Counted from the first letter of the stretch, positions 23,073 through 48,562 are shown. The stretch is DNA of 61,922 nt from Candidatus Pacearchaeota archaeon (GCA_002688415.1 NZCX01000010.1:1-61922); one strand, 5' to 3'. Notes: generated by a model not told the origin, from the sequence alone. Made by a program: numbers and translations.

Positions 23073-23257
23073 CCAGTGTCCTTTGTGTTTTCTTTTTCAC
23101 TAGAATAATCTGGAATCCCTTTTTGAATAACATACCCTGCTCCTGCAAGAAGAAATAGAGGCCACGCATGTACGATCACATATAACACACCAACTCCAAT
23201 AGCGAATCCGATTCCTAGTGAGATTAAGTTAAAGTTAAAATTATTTTCATTGCTCAT
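23069..23257 (-). CDS. Small membrane protein
   Basis: Hydrophobic core. Confidence 0.5.
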   Translation of the reverse strand: MSNENNFNFNLISLGIGFAIGVGVLYVIVHAWPLFLLAGAGYVIQKGIPDYSSEKENTKDTG

Positions 23258-26200
23258 TCTTAATATAGTCCAATTTGGTTATAAAGTTCTCTATATTATC
23301 AATTCCAAAAGAATATAAAGGATTAAATTTCGTTTGATCTTTCGTAATGAAACTGAGACATACTTCATTTGTTGAGCCTTCGTATTCCTTTACTAAACTA
23401 ATAACCTGTTCTACATAATCAATGGGACATTCAATAATTTTTTTACTTACATTACTTATTGATTCTAACTCTAAAGGTTGAATTTTTTCAATGATAAATT
23501 TGGTTATTTTTTCATTTTCTGTACTGGTAACCTCGGTAGATCCAATAAGTACAAGGGGAACACCTTCTTGTAGAAATTCTTTACATTTTGTATAGTTTCT
23601 AGGAAAACAAACAGCCTCAATGGTTCCTGTTAAATCTTCTAAAACAAAAAATGCCATTGATTTTTTAGATTTTGTTGTGATTTCTTTAATGTTTGTAATC
23701 ACCGCACCAAGATTAACTTTGATTTTATTTTCAAATTCTTTTAAAGTTTCTATACTGAAAAAGTTCTTAGCATAATTTTTTGGATCAAAATTTCCAAGTG
23801 GATGATTTGTAATGTAAAATCCTAGCAGCTCATACTCCGCTTGATACAATTCTTTTTCATTTAATTCTAAAAGAGAATCGATATCCGGGAAGCCTAGTAT
23901 TTCAGGAGCAACTGGAAGTTTGAAAGGCTTTAATGCTTTTCCAGTATCTGATTTGATATTGTTTTTAATATCTTCAAGTCTCTGGTGGTATGCTTCTACC
24001 TTTCTTGTGTAAGTTAATAGTTTTCTTTCATATGCCTTGGAGTTCTTCCTGAATTCCCAAACATCATCTATTGCTTTCAGTAAGCTGGCACGATTTTCTT
24101 GCAAGGAATCAAAGCATCCAGCCCTTACCAAGGATTCAATTTTTAATCTATTGATGACTCCAAGATCAACACGTTGACAAAAGTCAGAGAAATTAGAAAA
24201 AGATTTAGATTTTCTTTCATCCATAATGACTGCAACAGGAGTTTCTCCTAAGTTTTTAATTGGGCTTAGCCCAAAACGAATGTTTTCTTGACTATCTACA
24301 TAGAAAGAACTCTTGCTTTCATTTATATCTGGAGGTAGAACATTGATTCCCATTCGACGGCATTCTGCTAAGCACTTGATCATCTCGTCTCTGTTTCCAG
24401 ACTCAGAGATCATTACAGCACACATAAATTCTCTTGGATAGTGTGTCTTTAACCATGCAGTTTGGTATGTAATGTAAGCATAGGCTGCAGCATGAGAGTT
24501 AGAGGTAACGATACCATTATCAACTGTAAATGTATGATTAGGGGCATCCATCTCAATATCGTAAACTTCTTTTTCTCCTACAGATTCTATTGAAACAATT
24601 TTTTCAAGTCTTGTAGAGAGGCCCGCTTCTCCCATTTTTGTTCTACCCATTTGATAATGAGCTTTTTTATGACATCCAGAGCAGAGGGTTTGAAGATTAT
24701 CTAATTTGTTATTTCCATGGTCTCCATCAACATGGTGAACCTCTAGATTCATTTGAGAACTGCAAAGCTCGCAACTAGTTTTCTTTAAATTATTTTGATA
24801 ATATTTTAATTGAGTATAAGGGGTATCTCTTTTTTGAAATCCTTGTTGACCTTTTTCAGGAAGATTGTCTCCAGGAAGATTGAACCTATACATAGTGTCT
24901 TTTGATTTGGAGCCATCGTTTACATATAAGAGATCTTCTTCTATAGATATATCTTCTAGCTTCTTCTCCCCATTAGAAGTTGGAAACTTATGATTTAAAG
25001 TTGTATTTATAGTTAAACCAGATTCTGTTGTGACCTGATAGGTTTCTTTTAAACCTTGGTATCTGATATCAACTATTTTATTTTTAACTAATTTGTTATC
25101 TTTATTTAAAGACCAGGCGTATCCATAACCTTTAGAAATTAATTTATTTCTCATTGGAATTGCATCTATTGAGCGAGCAAAACCACGATCATTTTTTATC
25201 TTATAAAGTTCTGAAATTGTATAGTGCCTACCCTTACTTATTGTAGGTCTATAAAGCTTAGTGTCTCCATCTAAACACTTGTTGAATGCATAGTCACTGA
25301 AAGCAACAATGTCTTCCCAGATTTTATCTGCTTTTTCTAATTCATATCCGTTGGCTTGCCAGCCTTTTTTAAATGCTTCTTCTTGTTGTTTAAGGGTCTC
25401 GGTTTCTTTCTTTCCGATAGCTCTCCGGAGAAGATCAGCATCGGCCATACTAAAACCAGCAAGTTGCTTAACAATTTCAAGGACCTGCTCCTGATATATA
25501 ATCCATCCTGCTGTGGGCTGTAAGATGGGTTCCAATTCTGGAATTAAATATCTTGGTTCACTATTGCCTGCTCGAATATCAAGATAGGTACTCTTATAGT
25601 CAGATCCTAAAGGACCTGGACGATAGATAGCAACCAAAGCAATTAAGTCTTCAAGGCAGCTAGGTCTAATTTGTACCAAAAGGTCCCTCATGCCAGAGCT
25701 TGCCTCCAGTTGAAAGACTCCCGTAGCATTACCTTGCCTTAGGTTTTTGTAAGTTTTAGGATCTTCGAGATCAATAGAATCAATAGTAAAATCTGAAATG
25801 TTGTCATGTCGCTCCTTGATTAGGTCAACACATCTGTGGATCTTACTTAAGGCATCCAGTCCAAGGAAATCAAACTTAATCAAACCATATTGTTCGATGT
25901 TTTTCATTTCCCATTGGGTAGTAATCTCTCCGCTTCTACCTAAGAATAAAGGCACAGTGCTATGTAAGGAATCATTTGAGATAACAATTCCAGATGCATG
26001 TACCCCGGCACTGGAGATAATATCTTCAAGCTTGCAAGCCCAGCGTAATGTTTCACCTTCAGGTCCATTAGATGTACTGTACTTTTTTAATTGTTTTACC
26101 TTTTCAATGGAGGTTTCTAATTTTTGTGGCTTCCCATGTATGGGTTCCAACAACAGGCGAGAAAGCTCATCACCTACAGAATAGGGATGGCCAAGAGTTC

Positions 26201-26660
26201 TAGCAACGTTTCTTACTGCAGCCTTCGCTCTCTGTAAATTGAATGTTCCTATGTGAGCAACATGATCATCACCATACTTATCAGTTACATAATCTATAAC
26301 CTTATCTCGATATCGTTTTTCAAAATCAACATCGATATCAGGCATAGATAGTCTGGCGGGATTTAAAAAACGTTCGAAAATTAACCCGAGTTTTATAGGA
26401 TCTAAATTAGTGATACCTAGACAGTAGCAGGCTAAACTACCTGCTCCTGATCCTCGACCAGGACCAACATAAATATCATTTTGTTTTGCCCAGTTAATGA
26501 AGTCTTGGACAATTAGAAAGTAACCAGCGTAACCCATCTTGTGGATTACTGAAATCTCATAGTTTAATCTATCAATATATATTTGATCGTTTTCTAGATT
26601 TCTATTCTTTAATCCTTTAAAGCATTTAAAAGTAAAGTAACTATCAAGAGTTGCCCCCAT
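23247..26660 (-). CDS. dnaE: DNA polymerase III alpha, catalytic part lacking the PHP domain; intein-containing
   Basis: GPGRGSGAGSL, FERFLNP.R.SMPDIDVDF, HASG, KFDFLGL, GVFQLE, YQEQ, FNK|SHAAAY; SD AGGAG. Confidence 0.95.
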   Translation of the reverse strand: MGATLDSYFTFKCFKGLKNRNLENDQIYIDRLNYEISVIHKMGYAGYFLIVQDFINWAKQNDIYVGPGRGSGAGSLACYCLGITNLDPIKLGLIFERFLNPARLSMPDIDVDFEKRYRDKVIDYVTDKYGDDHVAHIGTFNLQRAKAAVRNVARTLGHPYSVGDELSRLLLEPIHGKPQKLETSIEKVKQLKKYSTSNGPEGETLRWACKLEDIISSAGVHASGIVISNDSLHSTVPLFLGRSGEITTQWEMKNIEQYGLIKFDFLGLDALSKIHRCVDLIKERHDNISDFTIDSIDLEDPKTYKNLRQGNATGVFQLEASSGMRDLLVQIRPSCLEDLIALVAIYRPGPLGSDYKSTYLDIRAGNSEPRYLIPELEPILQPTAGWIIYQEQVLEIVKQLAGFSMADADLLRRAIGKKETETLKQQEEAFKKGWQANGYELEKADKIWEDIVAFSDYAFNKCLDGDTKLYRPTISKGRHYTISELYKIKNDRGFARSIDAIPMRNKLISKGYGYAWSLNKDNKLVKNKIVDIRYQGLKETYQVTTESGLTINTTLNHKFPTSNGEKKLEDISIEEDLLYVNDGSKSKDTMYRFNLPGDNLPEKGQQGFQKRDTPYTQLKYYQNNLKKTSCELCSSQMNLEVHHVDGDHGNNKLDNLQTLCSGCHKKAHYQMGRTKMGEAGLSTRLEKIVSIESVGEKEVYDIEMDAPNHTFTVDNGIVTSNSHAAAYAYITYQTAWLKTHYPREFMCAVMISESGNRDEMIKCLAECRRMGINVLPPDINESKSSFYVDSQENIRFGLSPIKNLGETPVAVIMDERKSKSFSNFSDFCQRVDLGVINRLKIESLVRAGCFDSLQENRASLLKAIDDVWEFRKNSKAYERKLLTYTRKVEAYHQRLEDIKNNIKSDTGKALKPFKLPVAPEILGFPDIDSLLELNEKELYQAEYELLGFYITNHPLGNFDPKNYAKNFFSIETLKEFENKIKVNLGAVITNIKEITTKSKKSMAFFVLEDLTGTIEAVCFPRNYTKCKEFLQEGVPLVLIGSTEVTSTENEKITKFIIEKIQPLELESISNVSKKIIECPIDYVEQVISLVKEYEGSTNEVCLSFITKDQTKFNPLYSFGIDNIENFITKLDYIKNEQ
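24498..25277 (-). mobile_element. Intein (260 aa) with embedded HNH homing endonuclease
   Basis: Interrupts the conserved FNK-SHA motif; starts CLDGDT, block B TLNHKF, block F VYDIEM..PNHTF, ends VTSN before Ser; HNH CELC..LEVHHVDG..NN..NL.TLC..CH. Confidence 0.9.
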
Positions 26661-27123
26661 TTTCTCTCCTATGAAACTGTTCTATAAACCAAGCTCGCAT
26701 CCATTTTTTAGGCCAGGGATACAAGTAATATTTATTTAATAAATTTACAACCTTATCGATGTCTTCTTCTGTTTGAATATTGGCATGCAGATAAGCTTCT
26801 CTTTCAAATTTCCACCGAAAATAAGAGAACAAGAATGGCAAGGGACATAACAAGTATAAAAATAGATATAACGAAACTCCATATTTTTTAAATTGTTTTA
26901 CATGGATAAGTTCATGTTTAATTATTGCATAATTTTTAATAGCTAAGGGGGATCTCTCTGTGTTTGGATAGTAAATTTTATTTCCGATAGTAGTCCAGAG
27001 ATTAGTCATAAATGCTGGGTAAAATAGACTAATAAATCTCATCAGGAGGGAGTTTTGTTTATTTATAAACTCAACATCCTCACTAATAAAACCTGCAAAT
27101 CCTTTTTTAACTCGCAATCCCAT
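26644..27123 (-). CDS. HExxH zinc-metallopeptidase-like protein (DUF4157-like) between the two dnaE halves
   Basis: TTIGNKIYYP, KHELIHVKQ, FEREAY; start set at ATG 27123 by SD spacing. Confidence 0.6.
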   Translation of the reverse strand: MGLRVKKGFAGFISEDVEFINKQNSLLMRFISLFYPAFMTNLWTTIGNKIYYPNTERSPLAIKNYAIIKHELIHVKQFKKYGVSLYLFLYLLCPLPFLFSYFRWKFEREAYLHANIQTEEDIDKVVNLLNKYYLYPWPKKWMRAWFIEQFHRRENGGNS

Positions 27124-28147
27124 CCTTTGCATATCCTTTTTTCCAATTATTAAATTCTTCGCAGTCTGGTTCTTTTGTGATGTCAAAGTAAGGCATCTGA
27201 TATTCACCGAGTGTGATATTTAAATCACACATCTTTGGAACCTCCAGGGTGTTATAGAATGCTTCTTCTGATCCTATTTTTCTGGCAGCTTCCAACATTT
27301 CTTCAGGAGATCTGACGTAAACACCATCACCATATACATCAGTTTTATTACACCCATCCTCATCTCCCTCGTATTCATCAAGGGTCTTCTTAAATTGTTG
27401 AGCCATGATGAGGTTGTGTGCTCTCTTGTCTTCTCGTGTTAAGAAGTGAGCATCGGCAGTAATAACTAATGGAATGTTTTCTGTCTTTGAGGTTTTAATC
27501 GCCCAATCATTGAACTTTTTTTGAGCTGGCATGATATTGTCTTGAATCTCTAAGTACAATCTACCATTAAACATTTCGTGAAGTTTTCTAAGTCTTTTAA
27601 CTGCTAGGCTCTGATAATCATATGGTTTAAGTTTTTCTGTAACATAGGTTTGCATGGCTAAATCATATTCTTCTTGGTTTTTCCCTTTTCTTGTTGGCTT
27701 AAGAGGGAAGCCCTTCTTAGCAATAACACCACCAAGGCATGCAGTTGTGGCCACTATTCCTTCTGCTCTTGTCTCAAAATGTTTCTGCCAAATACGTGGC
27801 TTATAGTAAAAGTTATGTAAGTTAGCCTGGTTTGTCATCCATACAAGATTCTCAAATCCTTTTGCATTCATAGCAATAAGAATCATGTGGTGGTTGTCTT
27901 TAGTTTTGACTTCAGAGTCGTCAGGATCCTCTGTGATGTATGCTTCGACTCCAACTAATGGATTGATATTATACTTCTTCGCATGCTTGTAGAATTCAAT
28001 AGAGCCATGCATAACACCATGATCAGTCAGTGCACAAGAACTCATTCCTAACTCAACAATTCTTTGGCATAGCTTATCAATTTTATTTAAACCATCCAGG
28101 ATACTATACTCTGAATGAACGTGGAGATGACAAAAATCTTCGGACAT
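27107..28147 (-). CDS. dnaE: Stand-alone PHP domain of DNA polymerase III alpha (N-terminal half)
   Basis: HLHVHSEYSILDG, ALTDHG, GVEAY, YYKPRI, TTAC, LEIQ, TADAHF. Confidence 0.9.
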   Translation of the reverse strand: MSEDFCHLHVHSEYSILDGLNKIDKLCQRIVELGMSSCALTDHGVMHGSIEFYKHAKKYNINPLVGVEAYITEDPDDSEVKTKDNHHMILIAMNAKGFENLVWMTNQANLHNFYYKPRIWQKHFETRAEGIVATTACLGGVIAKKGFPLKPTRKGKNQEEYDLAMQTYVTEKLKPYDYQSLAVKRLRKLHEMFNGRLYLEIQDNIMPAQKKFNDWAIKTSKTENIPLVITADAHFLTREDKRAHNLIMAQQFKKTLDEYEGDEDGCNKTDVYGDGVYVRSPEEMLEAARKIGSEEAFYNTLEVPKMCDLNITLGEYQMPYFDITKEPDCEEFNNWKKGYAKDGIAS

Positions 28148-41984: not shown

Positions 41985-42605
41985 TTAATCCATTAATGCA
42001 TTTCCCATTAAATTGATAGCTGCTGCTTTAGCGTTAACCAAATCAGAAGTACTATCCTTGGGTTTCCAGGTAAAAATTACTGATGTTTGCTCGAATGCGG
42101 TTGTTAATTTTAATATAAGATCTCTTTTCTTTGTCAAAAGAGTCGTATCGCATTTCTTTTCACTATTCATTTTTTCAATAACTTCTAAGTGATCAGAAAT
42201 GACATGAATAGGAGTATTAATATTTGCTCCAACATATAAATCCAATAAGGTTCTCAAAGACATGTAAATACCATCAAAGCAGCATTCTTCTTTATCTCTA
42301 TTTTTTAAATATCTTGCAGTAGTAATATTTTCTTGTTTTTGCCCAGGAAAGTTAATGACCATTCCAAGAGTATAAAACAATTCTTCTTCGACACGATAGC
42401 GCATAACTTTCGTGGTAATGGTAATTGGTTCTTTGTGAAGATTTTTAGATAATTCAATATCTTCTTCTTCTAAGTTTAAAGCAATTTCTTGTAAGTGTCC
42501 TAAGAACTTAGTAGTTGTTGTTAATATTGGATTTGAAGAATTCAAATACTTATCAATCATATCATTGATAGCTAATAAGCGCTTATCTGAGCCTGAAATA
42601 GACAT
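41985..42605 (-). CDS. RNase H-like fold protein, catalytically degenerate (tentative)
   Basis: LGMVI...; ECCFDGIYMSL aligned to AEYxAL; IHVISDHLEVIEKMN aligned to vxixsDSxLVvxqm. Confidence 0.4.
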   Translation of the reverse strand: MSISGSDKRLLAINDMIDKYLNSSNPILTTTTKFLGHLQEIALNLEEEDIELSKNLHKEPITITTKVMRYRVEEELFYTLGMVINFPGQKQENITTARYLKNRDKEECCFDGIYMSLRTLLDLYVGANINTPIHVISDHLEVIEKMNSEKKCDTTLLTKKRDLILKLTTAFEQTSVIFTWKPKDSTSDLVNAKAAAINLMGNALMD

Positions 42606-42608
42606 GGT

Positions 42609-43130
42609 TCAACCCCATTTTAACATTTGGGGGACAGCTGCCTGTAGCAACTCTTTCATTACAATCAGCTCATCCCCAGATAGAGGAACTTGATGGTTTT
42701 TATTTTGTCCACCAGCAGATTGAGAAGCTCTTACCATGCATCCATTAGCTGTTCCTTTGGGGGAGGCTAAATATAGATTCTTTTTAACTAATCCTTGGGA
42801 TTCACTTTTAGCTCCTGGATCATGCATGATGCTGCATTCTTGACCAGTGTATAGTGAATGAAGGATTTTACCGACATCGGTAACTGACAAAGCAAGAACA
42901 ATCTTGTTTTCCCAATCATAGACATTTCTATCTTTTGTGCTGGTAATCTCCATAAAGATAGTTCCTTCACGGATTTTCCATCCATCTCTTAAGGATCCAT
43001 TCTCCATGGCTTCATAACCTGTGTAATCTTTGTTTTTGCCTGAATAAAAATGTGGAGGTTGTAAATTCAATTGAATTGCTCCCCATTTTCCAGCCATACC
43101 TTTGTATATAGAATATTGTAATGGTCTCAT
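42609..43130 (-). CDS. Whirly-family ssDNA-binding protein
   Basis: YSIYKG..GA, YDWENKIVLALSVTDVG, HDP...S.QG.VKK.L, VPLS..E...VP..LKW, colinear with plant Whirly. Confidence 0.75.
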   Translation of the reverse strand: MRPLQYSIYKGMAGKWGAIQLNLQPPHFYSGKNKDYTGYEAMENGSLRDGWKIREGTIFMEITSTKDRNVYDWENKIVLALSVTDVGKILHSLYTGQECSIMHDPGAKSESQGLVKKNLYLASPKGTANGCMVRASQSAGGQNKNHQVPLSGDELIVMKELLQAAVPQMLKWG

Positions 43131-45048: not shown

Positions 45049-45261
45049 CTAATTACCTCTATTTTTATTTTTGAAAAAATTTGCTAAATTTTTAATTTTT
45101 TCAGTAAATCTTTCAAGTTCGATTTTTCTTCTATCTCTTCTTTCATATCTATAAATATAATCTAAGTAACTACTTGCTTGGGCAAGAGTTAATCCGAGTT
45201 CATCGTTTTCGATATCTTTGATATTGGCTTCTATAATTTTTTCAAGGTTTGGATCAGTCAT
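45049..45261 (-). CDS. Hypothetical protein
   Basis: Overlaps the desulfurase stop. Confidence 0.5.
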   Translation of the reverse strand: MTDPNLEKIIEANIKDIENDELGLTLAQASSYLDYIYRYERRDRRKIELERFTEKIKNLANFFKNKNRGN

Positions 45262-46330
45262 AAAGTAATTTCCTAATAGTGTTAGTTAATATAATTGCAC
45301 CTTTTTCAAGTTCTTCCCATGTATTCTCAGGTGATAAAGATATACGAATAGTAGATAATGCATTTTTATCTGACATTCCTATGGCAGATAAGACATGTGA
45401 AGGGATTATTTCTTTAGAATTACAAGCAGATCCCGCAGATACAGCCAATCCATTATCACTTAATTCCATTAATAGTTCTGTTGCATCGATTCCTTTGAAT
45501 CGAATACTTAGTACTCCAGGAAGTCGTCTAATTGTTTTAATATTATATTCATAATTAATTTTCAACTGTTTTGAATATTCAGCTAGGCGTTTTTTGAAAA
45601 ATTGTTCCTTTAATATAGCATCAACTTTTCTTTGGGCAAGATTTATAGAAGTTAGAGTTTTTGCAAATGCAAAAGCTAACGGGACTTGAGGAGTACCCAG
45701 ATAGGGTAACTCCAAATCAATTCCCTCTTTAATCCACAGGCATGCAATACCTTTTGGAGTTCCAAACTTGTGACCTGACATAGTTAAAAAGTCACATTGC
45801 ATTTTTTGGACATTTATGGGTAATTTTCCGGCTGCCTGAACTGCATCTATATGGTAAAGAGCTTGTTTTATTTTTGGTTTAATAATTTCAACTGGCTGAA
45901 TAACACCAGTTTCGTTATTAACATACAGCATAGAGACTAACTTAGTATCTGTTGTTATTTTTGCAATTATCTCTTTTACGGAAACCAAACCATTACTTAA
46001 AGGCTTCAGCATTTTGGAAGGTTTACCAAATTTATGAATTGATTTATGGGCAGTTTCCATACATAAAAAAGGATTAGAATTGTTAGGCGCATATCTAAGG
46101 GCATTTTTTATTATGAAATGATTTGCCAATGAGGCAGTACTAGTCCATACAATTCTACCATTATAGCCATTTATATAGCTTTTAACTAATTCTTCTGATT
46201 TCTTGAGGATTTTTTTCGCTTCAAGACCTGAAGCATGAATGCTATTTGGATTAGCAAAAGGAGCTTTTTCAATTGCAAGAATAGCAATTGGTTTGATTGG
46301 GGTAGTTGCTGCATGATCAAAATAGATCAT
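45254..46330 (-). CDS. Cysteine desulfurase (IscS/NifS-like, PLP-dependent)
   Basis: IYFDHAATTP, NNETGVIQP, HIDAVQA.GK, SGHK (PLP Lys), SAGSAC (catalytic Cys). Confidence 0.88.
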   Translation of the reverse strand: MIYFDHAATTPIKPIAILAIEKAPFANPNSIHASGLEAKKILKKSEELVKSYINGYNGRIVWTSTASLANHFIIKNALRYAPNNSNPFLCMETAHKSIHKFGKPSKMLKPLSNGLVSVKEIIAKITTDTKLVSMLYVNNETGVIQPVEIIKPKIKQALYHIDAVQAAGKLPINVQKMQCDFLTMSGHKFGTPKGIACLWIKEGIDLELPYLGTPQVPLAFAFAKTLTSINLAQRKVDAILKEQFFKKRLAEYSKQLKINYEYNIKTIRRLPGVLSIRFKGIDATELLMELSDNGLAVSAGSACNSKEIIPSHVLSAIGMSDKNALSTIRISLSPENTWEELEKGAIILTNTIRKLLYD

Positions 46331-46342
46331 TTTTATTACCTA

Positions 46343-46930
46343 TTATAAGAAATTTTTCCAATATTCATTTTGAACCTTATCGAATGGAGTTCCAATATGA
46401 GATTTCCATTCAGGAGCTACAGGTTGCTTTTTAAGCTGCCATCCGAGTGTATCCAATGTCTGACTTCCCTTCTTACCATTACAGTATTTGCAGGAAGTTA
46501 CAACGTTTTCCCACGTACTTTTTCCACCTTTACTCTTGGGATGTACGTGGTCTAATGTACGGATGTTATTTTTACATTTTGTTCCACAATATTGACATTT
46601 ATTTCCATCTCTTTTGTAGATGTTATATCTGGAATATTTGACTGTTTTAATTATTTCAATTCCAGCAGTGGTATCTATTTTGATTACTCTTGGAATATAA
46701 ATGGAAATTGATGGAGAAGAGATCTTTCCTACATATTTTGCAGCTTCAAGTGGAAGATTATCGATTAAAGAACTGTATTTTATCCATTCATTAAGATTTC
46801 GTATTGTATATGTTTCATCAATTACACTTGCTTTACCTGTATATAAAGCACAAATGGCATCCTTAGCTATTCCAACTTTAACAGCTAAAAAATACTTATT
46901 TAAAATTAATACTTCACTACATAGAGACAT
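46343..46930 (-). CDS. HNH endonuclease (McrA / HNH_5-like)
   Basis: VLILN, RDGNKCQYCG, TLDHVHPKSKGG..TWENVVTSC..CN..KG. Confidence 0.9.
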   Translation of the reverse strand: MSLCSEVLILNKYFLAVKVGIAKDAICALYTGKASVIDETYTIRNLNEWIKYSSLIDNLPLEAAKYVGKISSPSISIYIPRVIKIDTTAGIEIIKTVKYSRYNIYKRDGNKCQYCGTKCKNNIRTLDHVHPKSKGGKSTWENVVTSCKYCNGKKGSQTLDTLGWQLKKQPVAPEWKSHIGTPFDKVQNEYWKNFL

Positions 46931-47747
46931 AACTTAATTTTTTATGGTAATACTCACTTAATTTATGATAAGTAACTTCGTCTATTGACTTAATATAAGC
47001 CAAATAACCATTTGTTACAGAATCAATTGGTTGTGCATTTATTGCTAGGTTTTGTAATCTAGCTCTTATTAATCGTTTGATTTGTCGTCTAGAAATAGAT
47101 TCTAGACTTACTCCTGCTACAATCTTAGCATCGTTATTACCTTTTCCATACCATTTTGTTTTCTTTTTATTGATAGGAAATCCCGCTCCAATCACCATTC
47201 CTTTGATTGTCTCAATTATTGCCCAGTCACGTTTATCTGCGGTAGTTGATAAATTTAAATCATCCATATATCTACTGTATTGATAACCCCATCTAACAGC
47301 AGCTTTACTTATGTAATAATCTATTCTAGATAAAACAATATTACAGATAATAGGACTGGTGGGGGCTCCAGTAGGAAGCATATTTTTGCCTTCCCAATTA
47401 ATAAAACAAGTATCTAGATTTTCTAGCATTTGTTTTTTGATATTTCCTTGAGGGAAATTACGATTAATTGCTTCGTAAGCCATATATGGAGTTATATTTT
47501 GATAACAATTAGAAATATCTACCTTTAGAAGATATTTAGCTCCTAAATGAGGTAAAGCGGCATCAAGAGGGCCACTACCTTTTTTACAAGCACAAGCGGG
47601 GGGAAGAGGATAAAGCTCATATAGAGATATTAATTTTTTTTGCTTATTCTTTAATTCTGGAGAAGGTTGTTGAATTAATCTTTTTTTGTTCGAATTTTTT
47701 TGACCAATGTAATAAATATCATAATTTTTTTGGAGTCTTTCTGGCAT
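46917..47747 (-). CDS. Retron-type reverse transcriptase (276 aa)
   Basis: KKRLI.QP...LK, region X AALPH, KVDISNCYQNI, LPTGAPTSP..CN, YSRYMDDL, INKKKT, region Y VAG. Confidence 0.88.
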   Translation of the reverse strand: MPERLQKNYDIYYIGQKNSNKKRLIQQPSPELKNKQKKLISLYELYPLPPACACKKGSGPLDAALPHLGAKYLLKVDISNCYQNITPYMAYEAINRNFPQGNIKKQMLENLDTCFINWEGKNMLPTGAPTSPIICNIVLSRIDYYISKAAVRWGYQYSRYMDDLNLSTTADKRDWAIIETIKGMVIGAGFPINKKKTKWYGKGNNDAKIVAGVSLESISRRQIKRLIRARLQNLAINAQPIDSVTNGYLAYIKSIDEVTYHKLSEYYHKKLSYVSM

Positions 47748-48114
47748 TTGCTGAATTCCGTTTTTGATAATTATTATTTGAAGGCTTTTTGCCTTTTTTA
47801 TAATTTTGTTTTTTTCTTTTCTTTTTAATAAAAGGTTTTCGTTCTTTTTTCTGCATTAATTCTTTTAAAGAAGAACCAGATCTTGCGGCTTTTAATCCAG
47901 TAATTCGTTCATAACAGATAGCACAAACAGCTATTTCTTTTGCTATTTCCCAACCTTCTATTTCTTCAACAATGCCTCTTTTCTTACCTTTTTTAATGAT
48001 TCTTTTGTAAGTTTTAGGGCGTTTTTCAACAATAATTGAATTTTTCGGTTGTCTATAGGGGGTATTAGGAGTTCCCCCTTTTTGTTTACATTTAAAGGCT
48101 TGGCATTTATACAT
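47719..48114 (-). CDS. Highly basic Cys-containing small protein, candidate RT accessory
   Basis: Start set at ATG 48114 (MYKCQAFKC); CAIC; Lys-rich tail; stop overlaps the RT start by 29 nt. Confidence 0.6.
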   Translation of the reverse strand: MYKCQAFKCKQKGGTPNTPYRQPKNSIIVEKRPKTYKRIIKKGKKRGIVEEIEGWEIAKEIAVCAICYERITGLKAARSGSSLKELMQKKERKPFIKKKRKKQNYKKGKKPSNNNYQKRNSANARKTPKKL

Positions 48115-48535
48115 GATGATAATCTTTCTAAATCTTAACAATCCCGAGTCCTGAGGGAGGGGAAAAGATCCAAAATAAACTTAATTCTAAAATCAAGGAA
48201 GGTCAAGCTTTAATTTTAGAATGACCAAAAACTTATCTTGAATTTTTTCTTTCCCCGTCTGACTCAGTTTATTTGAGTTTGCCAGGTTAATTTAAAATTG
48301 ATCAATTTAATTAATTTATTAAAATTATTAAATTCTCATTTTCGGATAACCGAATAATTTTTCCGGCAGCCTTAAATTCGTGCAGCGTTATCCCTTCCCG
48401 TTACAACTAGTCACGGGAAACGCTGCAGATCAGCTCAGCTCTCCGGAGGAGACCTGAAAGCAAGCTCAAACTGTTTAGCTAGGGCAGAGAGTTGGACATC
48501 CTGTCGAAGTCTCTGCCCTAAATAAAGTATCATCA
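48114..48535 (-). ncRNA. Candidate retron-like ncRNA (msr/msd-like multi-hairpin RNA)
   Basis: Terminal IR TGATGATA 48114-48121 / TATCATCA 48528-48535; stems 48480-48490/48510-48520 (11 bp), 48435-48457, 48381-48427, 48341-48354; long rod 48146-48267. Confidence 0.55.
48298..48325 (+). promoter_or_regulatory. Possible antisense sigma70-type promoter inside a 14-bp palindrome
   Basis: TTGATC-N16-TAAAAT; AAATTGATCAATTT palindrome at 48295-48308. Confidence 0.3.
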
Positions 48536-48562
48536 GCTTAGCGAAAACGCTCAGCTTTTTTT
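48535..48562 (+). terminator. Intrinsic-terminator-like hairpin on the + strand
   Basis: AGCTTAGCG-AAAA-CGCTCAGCT (one mismatch) followed by a T run to 48562. Confidence 0.45.

Follow-up and report, generated by a model that had tools for sequence, protein, structure and literature searches.

A retron-like cassette of structured RNA, four-cysteine basic protein and reverse transcriptase in a lineage of large marine phages

Retrons have drawn study both for the defence of bacteria against phages and for their use in genome editing. The retron-like reverse transcriptases (RTs) of viruses have only been counted, not dissected. The locus described here raises the question of which genes make up a retron-like system that is carried by a phage, and what a phage might do with it. 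It lies at positions 45049-48562 of a 61,922-nt contig filed under Candidatus Pacearchaeota archaeon (GCA_002688415.1, NZCX01000010.1:1-61922; the whole contig is called the window below), where a first-pass annotation had proposed a retron-like module consisting of a structured RNA, a basic cysteine-containing protein, a compact RT and an HNH nuclease, followed by a cysteine desulfurase. Judged by gene order and conservation among relatives, the core appears to be the RNA, the basic protein and the RT, with the HNH nuclease a frequent but dispensable companion and the desulfurase a frequent neighbour. We put at approximately 0.5 the probability that this is a retron-like ribonucleoprotein cassette, long resident in a lineage of large marine phages, with a core made up of a 450-680-nt RNA, the basic protein and an RT of the retron clade. 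The core is a compact unit of approximately 1.7 kb (the RNA, a 131-aa protein and a 276-aa RT) and its features, together with those of the adjoining genes, are as follows.

48535-48556, minus strand: 5' hairpin (AGCUGAGCG-UUUU-CGCUAAGCU), nearly invariant in the sub-family and lying immediately behind the upstream gene's stop codon
48524-48534, minus strand: a1, 5' arm of the long-range closing helix (GAUGAUA..CUUU), paired by RNAfold with 48115-48127
48479-48521, minus strand: SL1, conserved hairpin (..AGAGACUUCGAC..GUCCAACUCUCU..) with a covarying lower stem; inverted repeat I1
48346-48478, minus strand: variable core of GC-rich hairpins, holding CUGCAG at 48423-48428
48290-48345, minus strand: AT-rich hairpin or palindrome, its shape conserved without its sequence; inverted repeats I2 and I4
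48150-48268, minus strand: rod of 119 nt, comprising P1 (CUGAG/CUCAG), P2 (GGGG/CCCC), a covarying P3 and a P4 hairpin with the invariant loop GCUUGACC; candidate msd-like template hairpin
48115-48127, minus strand: a2, 3' arm of the closing helix (AAAG..UAUCAUC), abutting the start codon of the basic protein
47719-48114, minus strand: basic protein with four cysteines (Cys4), 131 aa
46917-47747, minus strand: retron-like RT, 276 aa, with YMDD
46343-46930, minus strand: HNH nuclease, 195 aa
45254-46330, minus strand: NifS/IscS-like cysteine desulfurase (class-V aminotransferase), 358 aa; a neighbour, not core
45049-45261, minus strand: open reading frame (ORF) of 70 aa

All ORFs of this run lie on the minus strand where the first-pass annotation had placed them, and the junctions that it described are exact, with overlaps of 29 nt between the basic protein and RT genes and 14 nt between the RT and HNH genes, and a gap of 12 nt between HNH and desulfurase. 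Homologues of the basic protein begin with MYKC, in support of the ATG at 48114 as its start codon. Pfam domains were assigned to the RT (RVT_1; 6.5e-21), the nuclease (HNH, PF01844; 5.5e-14) and the desulfurase (Aminotran_5; 7e-50). The run contains no gene for a PtuA-like ATPase, as had been observed, and no ATPase ORF was found in the cassette at any locus looked at.

Related loci were gathered by identity look-up and pattern scans, and the window proteins were then mapped onto them. The basic protein directly precedes the RT in all 26 distinct loci with upstream sequence, at RT identities down to 33%, whereas an HNH gene follows the RT in 21. The loci that lack it (L037/L015, L034, L035, L019 and L030) have the RNA, the basic protein and the RT intact; here the RT runs directly into the desulfurase, and the RTs P0010, P0015 and P0017 retain YMDD. 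The losses fall in at least two places on the RT tree. A conserved order of RNA, basic protein and HNH, as implied by the original description, therefore holds for the RNA, basic protein and RT, which are found together in every related locus, but not for the HNH, which is missing in 5 of 26; for the same reason an RT with an HNH effector can no longer be regarded as the core unit, and the naturally occurring cassettes with and without an HNH set the core apart from the nuclease. The desulfurase is adjacent or nearly so in 13 of the 17 loci with enough flanking sequence, and is absent in L007, L008, L021 and L026. In L003, L005 and L276 other genes intervene between HNH and desulfurase. The desulfurase is a frequent neighbour but not a core part. 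The cassette occupies the same genomic neighbourhood throughout, with genes for ClpP and a Whirly protein downstream, and its divergence parallels that of its neighbours, which argues for long vertical residence rather than mobility. A Whirly-based search for cassette-free relatives returned one locus, the sequence of which ends before the site.

Our sequence analysis of the RT shows all of the motifs that had been listed for it (KRLIQQP, AALPH, LPTGAPTSP, YMDD and VAG), and these are invariant or nearly so in 17 homologues; across the RT family the retron motifs NAxxH-like, LPTGAPTSP, YxDD and V(A/T)G are invariant. A profile of the 17 homologues aligns end to end with solved retron RTs in the PDB, headed by Ec86 (1e-39) and followed by Ec83, Ec78, the St85 family, Kva2 and Ec67, with the matches (1e-39 to 1e-26) spanning the full length including the C-terminal part, while non-retron RT classes (group II, DRT and Abi) reach at most 47 bits against the family profile. 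In PADLOC, retron models alone stand at the top (RT_II-A, 6.8e-43; I-A, 5e-40), and the best NCBIfam match is retron_St85_RT (NF038233; 156.5 bits against a cut-off of 235), with Drt3a at 48 bits and group II (TIGR04416) at 42 bits against a cut-off of 300. The claim of a retron-type RT is upheld by this full-length homology and by the motifs, but the protein falls in no typed retron family. In a FastTree tree of 153 sequences it lies within a 54-member clade, and the neighbouring lineages score no more than 150-200 bits with any of the PADLOC retron types; the best type score of the window RT itself is 145 bits and that of a genuine II-A member (P0162) is 302, which argues against membership of a typed family. 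On these sequence comparisons the RT is retron-like, outside the typed families and in an unclassified lineage. A search of 1.84 billion representative proteins yielded approximately 44 clusters with more than 230 bits, and lower scores step down into the continuum of retrons in general (1,378 proteins at E<1e-30). A search of GenBank phages gave no nucleotide match to the cassette, and its protein matches were retron RTs of at most 33% identity in unrelated phages. A scan of viral contigs with the single RT sequence likewise gave no matches, and the relatives were recovered by an alignment-based scan.

The stem-rich non-coding region described upstream of the genes was confirmed as a 436-nt spacer (48115-48550) that is strongly folded, with an RNAfold energy of -140 kcal/mol compared to -98.7 +/- 5.6 for shuffled sequences (z = -7.4; 0 of 100 shuffles as stable). 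In the sub-family of loci with at least 56% RT identity, the RNA measures 450-680 nt and follows a fixed order, namely a 5' hairpin, the arm CUGAUGA(UA), SL1, a GC-rich core, an AT-rich hairpin, the 119-nt rod and a complementary arm beside the ribosome-binding site. One copy of the 5' hairpin is present in the window (0 expected by chance), and the hairpin was also found in L001, L003, L014, L016, L028, L036 and L037. The lower stem of SL1 has changed in sequence yet remains paired in the window, L003, L014, L028 and L036. The closing helix (6-11 bp) is predicted by RNAfold in seven of eight loci and corresponds in the window to inverted repeat I3 (17 nt, 76% complementary, 388 nt apart); compensatory changes convert U-A to C-G in L036, U-A to A-U in L037 and A-U to C-G in L001, and in two sequences, the window and L001, pairing is kept by a new complement a few bases downstream of a decayed ancestral 3' arm. 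The rod has firmer backing than this helix: RNAalifold gives 43 pairs over six sequences, of which 12 show double compensatory changes, and a covariance model (R1) recovers the left-out L037 and L034 (E ~1e-6) and finds a single copy in the window. The rod stands 2-3 nt from a2 in most loci, the position that an msd hairpin takes. The proposed upstream RNA element is, then, a conserved, covarying and structured spacer. Its topology, with a 5' arm, a conserved stem-loop and a long hairpin next to the 3' arm ahead of the RT operon, fits that of a retron non-coding RNA.

The RNA is far from uniformly conserved. Between the near-identical phages L014 and L016, identity is 96-99% over the adjoining RNA and 85-99% for most genes nearby, yet it falls to 55-61%, with indels, across approximately 200 nt of the core (L014:4200-4400). 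Certain hairpin modules, for example GUGCGCAU-N-AUGCGCAC, turn up at differing places in L003, L014, L016 and L028, which gives an impression of shuffling. In divergent clades the spacers are different ones but again strongly folded (approximately 300-480 nt), some of them closed by a helix beside the start codon, and a structured spacer of approximately 300-700 nt lies upstream in all clades though its sequence has been replaced. The only primary-sequence motif common across clades is CUGCAG (CTGCAG), which is present in 13 of 18 RNA regions (the window, L001, L003, L014, L016, L028, L037, L277, L023, L022, L008, L018 and L024) against approximately 0.07 expected per region; it occurs once in 12 regions and twice in L037, usually at the base of a hairpin and without a link to the presence of the HNH. 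Scans of viral and genome contigs with the 14-mer ACTGAGTCAGACGG gave chance matches, with the rest of the rod in none among the matches listed. No promoter or terminator was called on the minus strand in a scan of 48100-48560, so the RNA is likely to be co-transcribed with the upstream genes; a sigma70 promoter reading of TTGACC-N17-TAAGTT in the rod was rejected as it was under the scan threshold. The contigs of L034, L035 and L005 end within or just before the RNA region, which could reflect assembly trouble in a hairpin-rich or hypervariable stretch.

The basic protein is known solely in front of these RTs. Its family comprises 36 clusters among 5.8 billion, and three loci that were retrieved via the basic protein alone have the RT adjoining in all three. 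It has conserved cysteines at C4, C9, C64 and C67 (two divergent members are without the second pair) and a tail rich in Lys and Arg. An AlphaFold2 model built from the family alignment (mean pLDDT 77; ~90 for residues 1-80) predicts that residues 25-40 and 48-63 form a long beta-hairpin, at the base of which the cysteines lie, and that the tail is disordered. A search of solved folds with this model returned no credible match (best E 0.7), and sequence searches gave none in Pfam, PDB, PADLOC, PHROGs or NCBIfam. The protein belongs to an orphan, zinc-ribbon-like family that is predicted to bind zinc.

How such a cassette might work can be sketched from these parts. The RNA would be transcribed with the operon and would fold into a domain closed by the short a1/a2 helix; with the basic protein as its RNA/DNA-binding cofactor, the RT would prime DNA synthesis close to the 5' arm, as retrons do, and would go on to make single-stranded DNA from the 119-nt rod (48150-48268), the hairpin that adjoins the 3' arm. 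The nuclease would be translationally coupled in most lineages, and would be an optional output module and not the purpose of the system. That the core persists where the HNH is missing speaks against a simple toxin-antitoxin retron, and the hypervariable RNA core together with the dispensable nuclease suggests a role in conflict, either phage against phage or in counter-defence through a decoy nucleic acid, over that of a toxin-antitoxin switch for abortive infection. A bolder and, to our minds, improbable proposal is that of a distinct class of viral retroelement in which the RT and a dedicated zinc-ribbon cofactor copy a large RNA, with a core that is hypervariable even among near-identical phages, into structured DNA for the phage's own use. 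Taken as a whole, with the DNA acting as a quickly evolving decoy or sponge that counters systems of the host or of rivals, or as a primer or recombination substrate, and with the class being toxin-independent and separate from both defence retrons and diversity-generating retroelements, the proposal is to be held just as tentatively.

Several observations weigh against a retron-like cassette. The window RT scores under the cut-off of every curated retron family, and the RNA is 3-6 times longer than the known non-coding RNAs (ncRNAs) of retrons. The short closing helix beats shuffled partners in only three of seven loci (p 0.006-0.66), and the covariance model of the rod finds nothing in clades with RT identities of 45% or less. 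No G was found at a conserved position after a1, where a linker of 6-10 nt contains a G in every locus but in varying context. Rfam gives no match for the spacer at E<=1, although Rfam 15 may lack a model for it. Sense and antisense folds are equally stable, which means that the hairpins may act at the DNA level and makes a test of strand asymmetry uninformative. The motif UUUAG after a1 was also not conserved across the aligned loci.

Two alternatives deserve to be weighed seriously. The first is a classical tripartite retron for superinfection exclusion, in which a complex of RT and multicopy single-stranded DNA (msDNA) would restrain the HNH until a competing phage releases it, with abortive infection or exclusion as the outcome. 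The catalytic residues of the HNH protein (D127, H128, N142 and N151) are invariant and so is its CxxC..CxxC zinc site. Its gene overlaps that of the RT by 14 nt in the window and adjoins it in 21 of 26 loci. A distant viral contig (L010:3590-5855) has the same HNH family in the other order, upstream of a retron-like RT of 27% identity, with a spacer of ~740 nt and without the basic protein. Type I-A retrons moreover use an HNH (PMC7736814). However, the nuclease has been lost at least twice independently from cassettes whose RNA, basic protein and RT are all intact; a PtuA ATPase is missing; and the HNH is not of the PtuB type, scoring 21 bits against a cut-off of 52 with the retron HNH model TIGR02646 and 40 bits with PtuB, over the HNH core only. 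Its core is instead of the Cas9/IscB type (NF040563, 1e-12; the top Foldseek matches are the HNH domains of Cas9d and IscB), and phrog_16726 matches it over its full length. We consider the tripartite retron unlikely.

The second alternative takes the spacer to be a processing, regulatory or origin region, for example a set of RNase III sites, a 5' untranslated region (UTR) acting as a switch that masks the ribosome-binding site, or a cluster of DNA hairpins, with the RT acting elsewhere or template-free like some defence RTs. The a2 arm overlaps the Shine-Dalgarno and start region, so the closing helix could gate translation. The helices are almost wholly Watson-Crick with few G.U pairs, and the complement folds equally well; this strand symmetry would suit DNA hairpins, and it also fits the requirement that the complementary DNA (cDNA) copy fold, as expected of a template. 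Within the rod, TGGTCA-N16-TGACCA and TTGACC-N17-TAAGTT resemble an operator and a weak promoter at constant spacing. Against this stands the likeness of the RT to retron RTs over its whole length, C-terminal part included, and the fact that a structured spacer accompanies the basic protein and RT in all clades despite replacement of its sequence. The scan of 48100-48560 called no promoter or terminator on the minus strand, and a hypervariable core between ends that are 96-99% conserved would be odd for a plain UTR. We regard a spacer that is not a template as doubtful.

Far less probable is a module for sulfur modification of nucleic acids, in which the desulfurase would work with the RT or HNH, either in thiolation of the RNA or cDNA or in a Dnd/Ssp-like manner. 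The desulfurase adjoins the cassette in 13 of the 17 loci with enough flank, including the distant L276 and L005, and it scores 247 bits with SspA and 241 with DndA; however, the NifS/IscS models score equally (TIGR03402, 215 bits), all of these scores are under the curated cut-offs, and no DndBCDE- or SspBCD-like partners were found among the neighbouring called genes. Its absence from four loci (L007, L008, L021 and L026) and the genes inserted before it in L003, L005 and L276 also speak against a joint function. Cas4-like nucleases often carry Fe-S clusters, and the desulfurase may serve Fe-S proteins such as the Cas4-like nuclease of the phage, which would be an alternative client for an IscS. 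In L003 (L003:7402-7869) and on the P0005 contig, a gene for an HNH_3/AP2 homing endonuclease lies between HNH and desulfurase. That the RT and HNH act like a group II intron protein, copying the RNA into new DNA sites, is scarcely credible: an RT, an HNH and a large structured RNA superficially recall group II intron ribonucleoproteins, and a homing endonuclease gene adjoins in L003, but the group II RT model gives 42 bits against a cut-off of 300, Rfam finds no intron, the window holds a single copy whose RNA does not flank the ORFs, and the position is fixed, with divergence parallel to that of ClpP and Whirly across the family.

A retron-like cassette of RNA, basic protein and RT can also be compared with systems already described. 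With the bacterial retrons Ec86 (II-A) and Ec78/Ec83 (I-A) it shares full-length RT homology, the signature motifs, a structured RNA directly upstream on the same strand that is predicted to be closed by a short inverted repeat, a long hairpin abutting the 3' arm and, in most cassettes, a nuclease gene downstream. It differs in that its RT is under all typed cut-offs, its RNA is 450-680 nt long with a hypervariable core of many hairpins and no conserved branching G found, PtuA is absent, the HNH is of another family and dispensable, and the carrier is a large, apparently non-temperate phage. It also has an obligatory Cys4 basic protein, a partner without counterpart among retrons: the classification of retrons into 13 types has an HNH only alongside a PtuA-like ATPase (type I-A) and never mentions zinc in its text (PMC7736814), which suggests that it includes no zinc-binding accessory protein. 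Among viruses, retron-like RTs have been tallied in metagenomes as clusters RTC3 and RTC5 (PMC13681634), and MarsHill-like jumbo phages of S. aureus have a retron-like RT with a 1.2-kb upstream spacer (bioRxiv 10.1101/2020.12.14.422802). These resemble the present case in having a retron-like RT in a lytic or large phage, a long upstream non-coding region and no recognised effector or function. The MarsHill RT (gp206), however, is a 501-aa fusion with an N-terminal domain of unknown kind, and no Cys4 basic protein, HNH partner, RNA covariation or function is reported in these papers. We found no description in the literature of a cassette of RNA, basic protein and RT.

The HNH protein invites a further comparison, with the IshB and IscB proteins of the OMEGA systems, which share the Cas9/IscB-type HNH core and an N-terminal domain before it, IshB being of similar size (~180 aa; PMC11610941). 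The N-terminal domain of the cassette HNH (~95 aa) gave no IscB or IsrB match at E<=10 in a profile search of the PDB and a single weak match to Pfam RRXRR (E 0.07, one of 12 members), and thus has no significant match to solved IscB/IsrB or Pfam. An IshB/PLMP reading of this domain has no sequence support in either database, and the resemblance serves as a lead only. The cassette RNA persists without the HNH and so is not the guide of that nuclease.

The cassette is of interest as a defined, conserved unit that the virus carries in the conflict in which retrons are known, and as one whose obligatory protein partner is new. If DNA is made, it would reveal the use to which a virus puts a retron, and it could offer a small RT with a long and naturally variable template.

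As to the carrier, the window comprises contig C9 in full, which is binned in a metagenome-assembled genome (MAG) of 0.8 Mb and 86% completeness, and its gene content is that of a large phage. It encodes a repeat-rich virion or baseplate-type protein of 1,477 aa, a primase-helicase, a Cas4-like exonuclease, a UvsX-like recombinase, a ribonucleotide reductase, ClpP, a Whirly-like protein, two tRNAs and a DnaE-type polymerase encoded in two parts, PHP (27107-28147) and catalytic (23247-26660). The only tyrosine integrase match in the MAG lies on another contig (C23) and none on the window contig. The phage-like character claimed for the contig is upheld; the carrier is apparently non-temperate and a lytic lifestyle is plausible. 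The presence of a phage-like contig in this MAG may be due to composition-driven mis-binning or to infected cells. Relatives were found on viral contigs in IMG/VR that measure 52-116 kb, and on contigs from metagenomes that reach 192 kb. The catalytic part of the split polymerase has an HNH-like insert at residues ~609-754, as seen from PHROG matches.

All close relatives keep genes for a Whirly-family single-stranded DNA-binding protein and for an RNase HI-type enzyme a few kb downstream of the cassette, at 41985-43130 in the window. Maturation of msDNA in bacterial retrons involves host RNase H, and by analogy the RNase HI-type gene of the phage could be relevant to msDNA maturation here. 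Upstream of the RT-associated spacer, tRNA-gene-like sequences with T-arm-like motifs (e.g., GGTTCAAGTCC) lie directly before it in L021, L023, L008 and L024, which belong to divergent clades. In L007, L018 and L020, likewise divergent, an ORF of ~100 aa with hydrophobic segments and an HExxH-like motif lies between the spacer and the basic protein gene.

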